Both the position numbers and the translations under genes were made by a program. Below, in pieces: positions 37,696 through 54,523 of a stretch of DNA of 64,000 bases (positions are counted from its first letter, which is position 1; every line of letters begins with the position of its first letter). Below the pieces are notes generated by a model. It was not told where the DNA came from. It made no database searches and saw only the letters and a list, made by a program, of their open reading frames with translations. The DNA lies in contig JBDTQG010000009.1 in the NCBI GenBank assembly GCA_039932315.1, positions 3,969 through 67,968 on the forward strand, read 5' to 3'. Source of the DNA: Thermoanaerobaculia bacterium (GTDB taxonomy: Bacteria; Acidobacteriota; Thermoanaerobaculia; Multivoradales; JAGPDF01).

Positions 37696-38766
37696 ATGAG
37701 CTCGAGCCCTTCGATTCGCGAAGTCGCCAGGTTCGCCAAGGTTTCCGTGGCGACGATTTCGCGCGTCCTGAACGGCAAAGGGGCGATTCGCGAATCGACG
37801 CGAACGCATGTCCTCGCGGCGATCGCCGAGCTCGGCTACGTTCCCCACAGTGCGGCGCGATCGCTCTCGACCCGGCGCACACTCAGCCTCGGCGTCGTGC
37901 TGCCGGATCTGCACGGCGAATTCTTCTCGGAGCTCATCCGCGGCATCGATCTCGCCGCCCGACGCACCGGCTACCACATTCTGGTCTCGGGATCCCACAG
38001 CAAGAGCGCGGAGGCGAATGCCGTCCTCGCCGCGCTGCACGGGCGTGTCGACGGGCTGATCGTGATGAGCCCGGTGCAGCAGCCGGCGGACGCGAAGGCA
38101 GCAAAAGCCGCGCGCCCGTCGATTCCGCCGGGAGTGCCGGTCGTGATGCTCAACGCCGCGGACGAGACTTCGCTCCACGATTCGATCCGCATCGACAATC
38201 GCGGCGGAGCTCGCGCGCTCGTCGAGCATCTGCTCTATCTCGGCCATCGCCGCATCGCGATGATCAGCGGACCCGAGGGAAACCTCGACGCGGCGGAGCG
38301 CATGCTCGGCTATCGCGAAGCGCTCGCTGCGCGCGACGTTCCGTTCGTCGAAGAGTGGGTTCTGGCGGGCGATTTTCGCGAGGAGTCCGGATTTCGCGCC
38401 GGTCAGCGCATCCTCGAGCTCGAATCGCGGCCGACTGCGATTTTCGCCGCCAACGATGCGATGGCGATCGGCTGCTTCGCCGCCGTCCGTGAACGCGGCC
38501 TCGAAGTGCCGGGCGACATATCGATCGCCGGCTTCGACGACGTGCCGATGTCGCGCTACCTCTCGCCCGGCCTCACGTCGGTCCGCGTCGCGATCGCCGA
38601 GCTCGGCGCGCGCGCGGTTGAACGTCTTCTCATCGCCGTCGACGCCGTCGGCGAACGTCCGCGACACCACGAAGTGGTCGCCGCCACCCTCGTCCCCCGG
38701 GGCTCCACCGCGCCCCCGGGAGGCCCCACACAGTCCACAGCAACGCCACGGAGGAATTCGAGATGA
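37696..38766 (+). CDS. LacI-family transcriptional regulator
   Basis: HTH IREVARFAKVSVATISRVLNG plus a periplasmic-binding-protein-like sugar-binding core. Confidence 0.9.
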   Translation: MSSSPSIREVARFAKVSVATISRVLNGKGAIRESTRTHVLAAIAELGYVPHSAARSLSTRRTLSLGVVLPDLHGEFFSELIRGIDLAARRTGYHILVSGSHSKSAEANAVLAALHGRVDGLIVMSPVQQPADAKAAKAARPSIPPGVPVVMLNAADETSLHDSIRIDNRGGARALVEHLLYLGHRRIAMISGPEGNLDAAERMLGYREALAARDVPFVEEWVLAGDFREESGFRAGQRILELESRPTAIFAANDAMAIGCFAAVRERGLEVPGDISIAGFDDVPMSRYLSPGLTSVRVAIAELGARAVERLLIAVDAVGERPRHHEVVAATLVPRGSTAPPGGPTQSTATPRRNSR

Positions 38767-53404: not shown

Positions 53405-54523
53405 ATGGCGACCGTCGGTTTCGAGCGGATCCGCAAGTTCTACGGCAACGTTCCGGTGTTCGAGGATTTCAGCCTCGAGGTGAACGATGGCGAGTTTCTG
53501 GTCGTCGTCGGACCTTCGGGCTGTGGCAAGTCGACGCTGCTGCGGCTGCTCGCCGGACTCGAAGAGCTCGACGCGGGAGAAGTGAGGATCGCCGGCCGCC
53601 GGGTCAACGAGCTGCCGCCGCGGGAACGCGACATCGCGATGGTTTTCCAGAGCTACGCCCTGTACCCGCACATGAGCGTGCGGAGGAATCTCGGCTTCGG
53701 ACTCGAGATGCGGCGCGTCGCGAAAGACGAGGTGACGCGCCGGGTGGATGAGGCGGCAAGACTGCTCGGACTCGACAGCCTGCTCGACCGCCGCCCGGCC
53801 CAGCTCTCGGGCGGGCAACGTCAGCGCGTCGCGCTCGGGCGTGCCCTCGTGCGCCAGCCGGCGGTGTTTCTTTTCGACGAACCGCTGTCGAATCTGGATG
53901 CCGCCCTGCGGGTGTCGATGCGCGCCGAAATCGCCGCGCTTCATCGCCGGCTGGGAACGACGACCATCTATGTCACGCACGACCAGGTCGAGGCGATGAC
54001 CATGGGCACCCGGGTCGCGATCCTCGACCGGGGAGTTCTGCAGCAGGCGGCGACGCCGCGCGCGATCTACGACCGGCCGGCGAACGTTTTCGTCGCCCGC
54101 TTCATCGGTACGCCGAGGATGAGCCTGTTCGAAGCCCGCTGGGGCTCGACTCCCGGAACGCTGGTGATCGGCGAACGGACCGTCGCCTGCGATCTCGGGC
54201 CGCCACCGGGCGTGTCTCGGGACACCCGGCTCCTCGCGGGCTTCCGCGCAGAGGCGGCGCGCCCGGGGGCGAGCGCGCCGCGATCGGATACCGGTGATGC
54301 GGGCTCCGGAACGCTCGCTTTCCAGGTCGATTTTCTCGAGCAGCTGGGCCACGAGACGCTGGCTCACGGGCGCGTCGCGGGTTCGGCGGACCCCGTCGTC
54401 GTGCGCTTCGCGCCGCGCGCGGCGCCCTCGCCCGGCAAAGCGATGGAGATCGCGATCGACCCCGCGGCCTGGCACCTTTTCGACGCCGCCACCGGCGCGC
54501 GGCTGGAGAATGTCCCGGTGTGA
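53405..54523 (+). CDS. Sugar ABC transporter ATP-binding protein (MalK/UgpC/MsiK type)
   Basis: Walker A GPSGCGKST, signature LSGGQRQRVALGRAL, Walker B FLFDEPLSNLD and a C-terminal regulatory (TOBE-like) domain. Confidence 0.9.
   Translation: MATVGFERIRKFYGNVPVFEDFSLEVNDGEFLVVVGPSGCGKSTLLRLLAGLEELDAGEVRIAGRRVNELPPRERDIAMVFQSYALYPHMSVRRNLGFGLEMRRVAKDEVTRRVDEAARLLGLDSLLDRRPAQLSGGQRQRVALGRALVRQPAVFLFDEPLSNLDAALRVSMRAEIAALHRRLGTTTIYVTHDQVEAMTMGTRVAILDRGVLQQAATPRAIYDRPANVFVARFIGTPRMSLFEARWGSTPGTLVIGERTVACDLGPPPGVSRDTRLLAGFRAEAARPGASAPRSDTGDAGSGTLAFQVDFLEQLGHETLAHGRVAGSADPVVVRFAPRAAPSPGKAMEIAIDPAAWHLFDAATGARLENVPV

Follow-up and report, generated by a model that had tools for sequence, protein, structure and literature searches.

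Which glucan is served by a gene cluster that joins an outer-membrane receptor to a sugar importer? We addressed this question for a ten-gene cluster in a 64-kb stretch of DNA from a Thermoanaerobaculia bacterium (contig JBDTQG010000009.1; the whole stretch is referred to here as the window). Eight co-directional genes span positions 37696-51961, followed by a convergent gene of glycoside hydrolase family 1 (GH1) and a divergent ATP-binding cassette (ABC) ATPase gene (Table 1). A previous reading of this DNA, made without database searches (the sequence-only reading), had listed the same gene content and domains, and both the open reading frames (ORFs) and the domain families that we obtained match that list. 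It had proposed a beta-1,2-glucan pathway as a candidate and had named cellodextrin or laminarin-type glucans as alternative substrates. Each check that we ran (the relationships of the GH144 enzyme, the binding protein and the GH94 enzyme) favoured the first proposal, whereas the GH144 and binding-protein relationships together with the synteny contradict the second. We put at about 0.8 the probability that the locus is a LacI-controlled catabolic system with which a soil acidobacterium uses foreign beta-1,2-glucans, be they cyclic, linear, or osmoregulated periplasmic glucans (OPG) of other bacteria. The predicted specificity is supported by homology and synteny. We draw on the gene order, on the families of the proteins and their orthology to characterised ones, on catalytic motifs that are intact, on synteny and on the conservation of an operator.

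Relationships of the GH144 enzyme, the importer and the receptor

The third gene of the cluster had been assigned to GH144, and this assignment was borne out. The product matched PF10091 with 271.8 bits (cut-off 27). Its best solved relative is XcSGL (XCC2207) of Xanthomonas campestris (8XUL, E = 1.9e-164), to which it is 54.7% identical over 435 positions, covering the whole catalytic domain; CpSGL (5GZH) matched at 1.9e-48. Residues E239, F286 and Y367 of XcSGL align with E250 (in GYSE, from 247), F295 (in GPLFGH, from 292) and Y376 (in FWSYAG, from 373) of the window protein, in which the three clan-defining GH144 residues are conserved. Note that the XcSGL crystal chain has Q at the position of E239; we assume that this is an inactivating mutation, the crystallised protein being called a mutant in the paper. 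Of the polysaccharides assayed, XcSGL hydrolysed beta-1,2-glucan only, was inactive on CM-cellulose, barley beta-glucan, lichenan and laminarin, and was crystallised with Sop7, a beta-1,2-heptasaccharide (PMC12102758). Judged by this alignment, the window GH144, which has a lipobox-like N-terminus, is an orthologue of XcSGL.

The solute-binding protein pointed in the same direction. Its top match in the PDB was 3UOR (Xanthomonas citri 'MalE', 1.3e-122), followed across the full length by Lin1841 (5YSB, 3.6e-65), a Listeria innocua protein that binds beta-1,2-glucooligosaccharides. The next sugar binder reached 1.3e-30, and maltose binders, like all the rest, scored no better than 1e-30. These matches support placing the protein, whose N-terminus is signal- or lipobox-like, among Lin1841-type sophoro-oligosaccharide binders, distinct from other sugar binders. 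The ATPase matched NF008653 with 447 bits (cut-off 432) and contains the Walker A and LSGGQ motifs.

The receptor carries a signal peptide ending in PMFAQ before GTTSS, with the CarboxypepD_reg domain directly after it. Its barrel matched PF25183 with 200.7 bits and PF00593 with 34.1 bits, and PF13620 scored 60.5 bits. A Pfam scan of the cluster products detected no SusD family, and the spacing between the receptor and GH144 genes is merely 4 nt, so that the description of the receptor as SusD-less with a CarboxypepD_reg domain holds. A Bacteroidota-type polysaccharide utilisation locus with a SusC/SusD pair was ruled out, as no SusD-like lipoprotein gene adjoins the receptor. The Xanthomonas counterpart XCC2208 was listed without a canonical plug in the 2007 census of TonB-dependent receptors (TBDRs), and the Oar-like subclass may not be a standard importer.

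The GH94 and GH1 enzymes

The 803-aa (amino acid) GH94 enzyme scored 350.2 bits against PF17167 and 199.6 bits against PF06165. We placed it by ranking search scores against relatives in the PDB, together with synteny. The best match was the GH94 domain of the glucan synthase Cgs (439.7 bits, E = 1.9e-130), extending over the full supersandwich and catalytic domains. Cellobiose phosphorylase (CBP) followed with 354.6 bits (1e-104), chitobiose phosphorylase (ChBP) with 316 bits and cellobionic acid phosphorylase with 233 bits. Cellodextrin phosphorylase, laminaribiose phosphorylase (4.5e-16) and SOGP were all distant. The enzyme did not cluster with the cellobiose or chitobiose phosphorylases; had it done so, this would have spoken against a beta-1,2-glucan pathway. 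D493 in the GDWNDG motif aligns with the catalytic Asp of RrCGS, D2528, and the motifs FGFRDQ (R374) and RENGGVYTHA (H647) are intact; in line with the CBP and ChBP structures, we take the latter two to be phosphate-binding.

An affiliation with the SOGP type of the Gram-positive beta-1,2-glucan locus, to which the sequence-only reading had compared the cluster, was not borne out. The match to LpSOGP (5H3Z) was limited to residues 423-655 (E = 1.3e-4, 23.5 bits), and the protein has 803 aa as against the ~1100 aa of SOGP with its extra N-terminal domain. We therefore rejected membership in the SOGP clade (EC 2.4.1.333, Lin1839/LpSOGP), although the enzyme may act like SOGP from outside that clade. 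Relatives with 57-70% identity were found in our GH94 scan nearly all in Thermoanaerobaculia and Phycisphaerae, and a GH144 gene lay within 10 kb of the close GH94 homologue in 47 of 51 informative loci. Both the score ranking and this linkage support assigning the window GH94 to a Cgs-related clade that is associated with beta-1,2-glucan genes.

A different GH94 enzyme of ~1270 aa with two supersandwich domains occupies the same slot in clusters of Gemmatimonadales and Duganella (L001, 13142-16996; L018, 14456-18241; L numbers denote the related loci that we compared). It is closer still to the Cgs synthase domain (873 bits). In Phycisphaerae/Planctomycetota, twelve loci (L099, L111, L113, L118, L124, L125, L132, L137, L139, L148, L151 and L156) encode a GH94 that is 57-65% identical to that of the window. 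Their GH144-like genes are distant (30-35%), the LacI gene is divergent and the Lin1841-type binder is often missing; these appear to be beta-1,2-glucan loci of another design.

The GH1 product matched the NCBIfam beta-glucosidase equivalog TIGR03356 with 596.8 bits (cut-off 478.5) and contains both catalytic glutamates (TLNEP and ITENG motifs). The listed ORF, which extends to 53436, overlaps the ATPase start codon. The real start is probably a GTG near 53355 (VTANTEFPDGFLWG), giving the usual GH1 N-terminus. Both divergent promoters would then have to fit into a spacer of only ~49 nt, in which there is one weak sigma-70-like site (53368-53396). A GH1 enzyme preferring sophorose, SGR_2426, was first reported in 2025, with Trp291 and Gln229 as its subsite +1 residues (PMC12369401).

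The 1079-aa secreted protein

The most interesting component of the locus is the 1079-aa enzyme, a side item in the sequence-only reading. The protein starts with a Sec signal peptide, followed by a beta-sandwich (residues 48-190), a CBM32/F5-8C domain (200-320), a beta-supersandwich (~350-580), an (alpha/alpha)6 barrel (~590-970) and a C-terminal beta-sandwich. AlphaFold (AF2) models were confident, with a pLDDT of 90 over the full length and of 91 in a model of residues 341-1062. In Foldseek comparisons the catalytic module was about equally near GH94 and GH15, at a TM score of ~0.6 and 10-15% identity (Cgs GH94 domain, TMq 0.64; bacterial glucoamylase 1LF6 of GH15, TMt 0.63, rmsd 5.3). The fold relatives included the Cgs and ChBP modules of GH94 and glucoamylase/glucodextranase of GH15. 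The beta-supersandwich and the (alpha/alpha)6 barrel are common to these enzymes and the 1079-aa protein; a signal peptide and two additional beta-sandwich domains at the N-terminus set the latter apart. An R-D motif, SWIRDG, is located at the start of the barrel, and we read it as equivalent to W-x-R-D of GH15 and F-R-D of GH94.

Family searches did not assign the catalytic part. The F5/8 type C domain was the sole Pfam match of the protein, and in the Pfam and NCBIfam scans the catalytic part matched no family above noise. Searching the PDB with the single sequence and with a 60-sequence profile, we obtained a match for CBM32 only, with nothing better than E = 0.008 for the catalytic part. 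Membership in GH15 was rejected (no PF00723 match; TIGR01577 reached 32.5 bits where 820.7 is the cut-off). For GH94 there was no Pfam match, and hhalign against a GH94 alignment gave a probability of 57% (E = 1e-4), which is too weak for us to claim membership. Diverged homologues gave sub-threshold Pfam matches to GH15 and to GDE_C, the amylo-alpha-1,6-glucosidase family; a profile comparison of the 1079-aa family with the window's own glycogen debranching enzyme (GDE, with its GDE_C domain) detected no relationship. More than 500 homologues exist, annotated only as 'discoidin domain-containing' or 'hypothetical'. Given these absent or weak family matches and the GH15/GH94-like fold, we treat the protein as belonging to an uncharacterised family of the GH15/GH94 superfold.

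Since the protein has a signal peptide, we favour a periplasmic or secreted hydrolase over a phosphorylase. Our estimate is evenly balanced on a larger claim, namely that the protein founds a new GH family: a periplasmic, probably hydrolytic cousin within the GH94/GH15 superfold that would act on beta-1,2-glucans, or on the odd linkages of cyclic or branched ones, as the obligate partner of GH144 in a seven-gene module. Two readings of its role, exo-trimming of beta-1,2 chains and cleavage of non-beta-1,2 linkages (the alpha-1,6 closure or beta-1,6 branches), are about equally open.

Synteny and distribution

To follow the module across bacteria, we scanned one genome per species with the 1079-aa family and obtained at least 590 relatives; linkage was counted in 80 fetched loci, among which those with at least 5 kb of upstream sequence were considered informative (n = 53). 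The carriers belong to Acidobacteriota, Gemmatimonadota, Eisenbacteria, Planctomycetota and Proteobacteria; Xanthomonas, Lysobacter, Duganella, Steroidobacter and Dyella are among the proteobacterial ones. Gene order was collinear across loci: GH144 comes first, then the binding protein, both permeases and the 1079-aa gene. GH144 was present in 52 of the 53 informative loci and the binding protein in 51. Two loci with diverged 1079-aa homologues (L107 and L135) seemed to lack the gene, an artefact of the coverage filter. Upstream, lacI and the receptor gene precede this set in 30-39 of the fetched loci. Of 50 loci, 37 have GH1 downstream and 16 a GH94 of any kind, and the pair of GH1 on the minus and ATPase on the plus strand recurs in many related loci.

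As the gene order recurs in dozens of genomes of several phyla, the arrangement is not due to chance. The pattern of synteny links the two forms of GH94 to beta-1,2-glucan metabolism, and the 1079-aa enzyme most of all.

A conserved candidate operator

We searched for the binding site of the LacI regulator in the window and in a total of 160 related loci. The window contains two matches to GTAAYCGRTTAC with at most one mismatch, as compared to 0.06 expected, both upstream of lacI (Table 1). The GTAAnCGnTTAC motif, usually inside ATGTAA...TTACAT, was present in ~40 of the 160 loci, in Proteobacteria as well as Acidobacteriota. Outside the window, the (A)TGTAAnCGnTTACA(T) palindrome is found a short way upstream of one of four cluster genes, those for LacI, GH144, GH94 or the ATPase. 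Two exact sites each were found in L018, L029 and L059, the sites of the three Xanthomonas loci (L050, L056 and L065) are at ~5250-5270, and ~30 other loci also carry the palindrome. Because it is conserved upstream of cluster genes, the GTAAnCGnTTAC palindrome is very likely the operator of the cluster's LacI regulator. Its position suggests that lacI is probably autoregulated, and its occurrence in both Proteobacteria and Acidobacteriota suggests that a single regulator-operator pair has travelled with the module.

Proposed pathway and alternative explanations

In the pathway that we propose, the lipoprotein GH144, acting in the periplasm or on the cell surface, would degrade the polymer to sophoro-oligosaccharides, and the SusD-less, Oar-like receptor would move the glucan or the oligosaccharides over the outer membrane. 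The secreted 1079-aa enzyme with its GH15/GH94 fold would perform a second processing step in the periplasm on the same substrate. The Lin1841-type binder, the two permeases and the MsiK-like ATPase would then import oligosaccharides of about Sop3-5. In the cytoplasm, the Cgs-type GH94 would remove glucose from the non-reducing end as alpha-glucose-1-phosphate, and GH1 would split the leftover sophorose. The LacI repressor would bind the palindromes upstream of lacI and presumably be released by an oligosaccharide. Here we infer the compartment of each step, the chain-length preferences, the inducer and the entire role of the 1079-aa enzyme.

Several observations weigh against this pathway. 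The clusters of Xanthomonas (L050, L056 and L065) and Lysobacter (L036, L037, L077 and L080) end after the 1079-aa gene, without GH94. Xanthomonas has no GH1 or ATPase gene nearby (within 10 kb) and, as in Lysobacter, the seven-gene core only. GH94 and GH1, being missing from these versions, are thus accessory parts of the system. No copy of the palindrome was found in the spacer between GH1 and the ATPase gene of the window, so this pair may be regulated separately from the other genes. A promoter scan gave no more hits than shuffled sequences (1 versus a mean of 1.3) and no convincing promoter; terminator-like matches numbered 19 (shuffles: mean 11.0, sd 3.1), but nearly all were inside coding sequence and none was convincing. 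The margin of the GH94 assignment over cellobiose phosphorylase is moderate, and we found no characterised stand-alone member of its clade. Finally, the Plug domain of the receptor scored 23.4 bits, just below the Pfam cut-off of 23.9, and an Oar-type receptor of Myxococcus is reportedly implicated in the export of proteins rather than in import.

We consider it highly improbable that the locus instead serves cellodextrin/cellobiose or laminarin/beta-1,3-glucan, with GH94 as a cellobiose or laminaribiose phosphorylase, GH1 as a cellobiase and the ABC system as an importer of cello-oligosaccharides. GH1 beta-glucosidases are often cellobiases, and the window GH94 has the same 800-aa architecture as the cellobiose phosphorylases that it matches at 1e-104. 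It is nevertheless nearer Cgs than CBP, far from laminaribiose phosphorylase, and from a clade whose genes mostly lie near GH144. The binding protein groups with Lin1841, the GH144 orthologue XcSGL is inactive on the four other glucans listed above, and the Pfam scan of the cluster detected no domain of the kind of GH5, GH9, GH16 or GH17. Also unlikely in our view is that the cell recycles or remodels periplasmic beta-1,2-glucans of its own (OPG or cyclic, for example upon osmotic shifts). The TonB-type protein would then have another role, possibly the export of enzymes as reported for Myxococcus Oar, and the Oar-like character of the receptor with its weak Plug domain would fit. The core module is present in Xanthomonas, a maker of alpha-1,6-cyclised beta-1,2-glucan. 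We take XAC2312, from locus-tag numbering only, to be the receptor of the X. citri cluster, and the 3UOR binding protein is presumably encoded by XAC2310. XAC2312, near the cluster by its locus-tag number, was reported to be under the joint control of PhoP and low osmotic stress (PMC9108719). Set against self-turnover are the layout of LacI, importer, phosphorylase and glucosidase, which is typical of catabolic sugar operons, the absence of a glucan synthase gene (Cgs, OpgH) from the 64-kb window, and the wide distribution of the module in metagenome-assembled genomes (MAGs) of Acidobacteriota and Gemmatimonadota. To our knowledge, neither phylum includes beta-1,2-glucan producers.

A further possibility is that the target is a heteroglycan or glycoside merely containing beta-1,2-glucosyl units, such as sophorosides, beta-1,6-branched OPG or alpha-1,6-closed cyclic glucans. 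The 1079-aa enzyme, perhaps a glucosidase specific for alpha-1,6 or beta-1,6 bonds, would then cleave the linkage that is not beta-1,2. We regard this tentatively, as having a real but minor chance. It would account for a second dedicated enzyme constantly paired with GH144, a pairing which suggests that GH144 by itself does not suffice for the natural substrate, for a catalytic module that is as near to GH15 alpha-glucoside hydrolases as to GH94, and for the sub-threshold GH15 and GDE_C matches of the diverged homologues. However, the likeness is at the level of fold only, at the 10-15% identity given above, and the profile comparison with the window's GDE was negative.

Comparison with known systems and significance

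The cluster is of a type that is largely known; its new element is the 1079-aa enzyme, which we could place in no described family, and its value lies in this enzyme and in the stand-alone Cgs-type GH94. The sequence-only reading had presented the locus as a diderm, TonB-plus-ABC version of a beta-1,2-glucan system. This is supported as a route, but the idea is not new. For Ignavibacterium album, a route through a TonB transporter, GH144, a Lin1841-like binder with ABC importer and a GH94 of the Cgs C-terminal type (IALB_1177-1187) was proposed in 2022 (PMC8861115, Kobayashi et al.). The diderm version has thus been anticipated in print, as a proposal. The I. album cluster resembles that of the window in its diderm, periplasm-then-cytoplasm logic, but differs in having two GH144 genes, a GH3 and the GH35 transglycosylase IaSGT (PMC8861115). 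A missing beta-glucosidase for Sop2 was noted in the same paper (PMC8861115). The I. album cluster was not described with the 1079-aa family, and the window adds GH1 and a LacI regulator.

In Xanthomonas, the three clusters have the same order as the window, with LacI, Oar-like TBDR, GH144, binding protein, two permeases and the 1079-aa homologue, and share with it the operator palindrome and a GH144 that is 54-55% identical. They differ in ending there, without GH94, GH1 or ATPase within 10 kb. XcSGL is the sole characterised member of this cluster; the literature searched yielded only the TBDR census and an osmostress transcriptome paper for its neighbour genes, and in it we found neither the cluster described as a pathway nor any account of the 1079-aa family or of the Xanthomonas-type module with its seven genes. 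The L. innocua cluster lin1839-1841 is similar in its sequence of ABC import, phosphorolysis and beta-glucosidase action on sophorose, and its binding protein is homologous. In contrast to the window, it belongs to a monoderm with no outer-membrane step, lacks GH144, has a GH3 glucosidase instead of GH1, and its phosphorylase is of the SOGP clade (~1100 aa), distant from the window GH94. The GH94 domain of Cgs shares with the window enzyme the conserved catalytic Asp and the Arg/His motifs. It is part of a membrane synthase of ~2800 aa, whereas the window enzyme is stand-alone, predicted to be cytoplasmic and encoded in a catabolic operon.

Bacteria employ beta-1,2-glucans in symbiosis, in virulence and for osmoprotection, and the turnover of these glucans in soil is poorly mapped. 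The window locus and more than 100 syntenic loci indicate a widespread TonB-plus-ABC module for beta-1,2-glucans in uncultured Acidobacteriota and Gemmatimonadota and in Xanthomonas. If the 1079-aa protein does found a new family, the seven-gene module would be common to Acidobacteriota, Gemmatimonadota, Eisenbacteria and Proteobacteria, including the plant pathogens of the genus Xanthomonas. Its reaction, once defined, could add a family to CAZy and a tool to make or analyse beta-1,2-glucans, and could also explain how cyclic or branched beta-1,2-glucans are opened.

Layout of the locus and neighbouring genes

Table 1. Genes and candidate operators of the cluster (positions in the window)
Feature	Position	Strand	Evidence
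Candidate LacI-type operator, half-degenerate, GAAACCGATTAC	37515-37526		181 nt upstream of lacI start codon
Candidate LacI-type operator, exact palindrome-like, GTAATCGGTTAC	37611-37622		85 nt upstream of lacI start codon
LacI-family regulator, first gene of the chain	37696-38766	+	PF00356 and Peripla_BP_3
Oar-like TonB-dependent outer-membrane receptor	38763-41726	+	Signal peptide, CarboxypepD_reg, Plug, OMP_b-brl_4 beta-barrel
GH144 endo-beta-1,2-glucanase (predicted), XcSGL/XCC2207 orthologue	41731-43257	+	PF10091; lipobox-like signal; Pro/Ala/Ser linker
ABC solute-binding protein, Lin1841 clade	43236-44585	+	SBP_bac_1; PDB sequence matches
ABC permease 1	44582-45499	+	PF00528 (BPD_transp_1); EAA motif at residue 200
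ABC permease 2	45496-46317	+	PF00528 (BPD_transp_1)
1079-aa secreted/periplasmic multidomain putative enzyme	46314-49553	+	Sec signal peptide, CBM32/F5-8C, AF2 models, Foldseek, synteny
GH94, 803 aa, catalytic Asp493	49550-51961	+	PF17167, PF06165, motifs, synteny
GH1 beta-glucosidase, predicted cytoplasmic, convergent with GH94	52006-53355	-	TIGR03356, motifs; listed ORF end 53436
UgpC/MalK/MsiK-type ABC ATPase with TOBE domain, divergent from GH1	53405-54523	+	NF008653, motifs

The six overlaps and the one 4-nt gap (41727-41730, between receptor and GH144) described earlier for the eight-gene chain are present, with one refinement. Five of the overlaps, at 38763, 44582, 45496, 46314 and 49550, are 4-nt ATGA or GTGA junctions, an ATGA joining lacI to the receptor gene, while that between GH144 and the binding protein at 43236 measures 22 nt. 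The convergent GH1 gene and the divergent MsiK-type ATPase gene at the end of the locus are likewise as first described. The cluster proteins are nearest to those of Thermoanaerobaculia MAGs.

The flanking genes are unrelated housekeeping genes, which bounds the locus at ~37500 and 54523. Directly upstream (32695-37447) are an ABC ATPase gene and genes for ABC_transp_aux/DUF7088 and DUF4340 proteins; these genes, in which we see a resemblance to GldG-like auxiliary transport sets, apparently form a unit of their own. Downstream, methylmalonyl-CoA mutase (54735-56783, minus strand) stands back to back with a class II (B12-dependent) ribonucleotide reductase (56608-59565, plus strand). An Rfam scan of the whole window gave zero families at threshold, cobalamin riboswitch included. 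The glycogen debranching enzyme mentioned above is full-length (GDE_N and GDE_C, 389 bits), lies at 1232-3343 and is unrelated to the locus. The sole tRNA of the window is tRNA-Leu(CAG), at 14679-14753.

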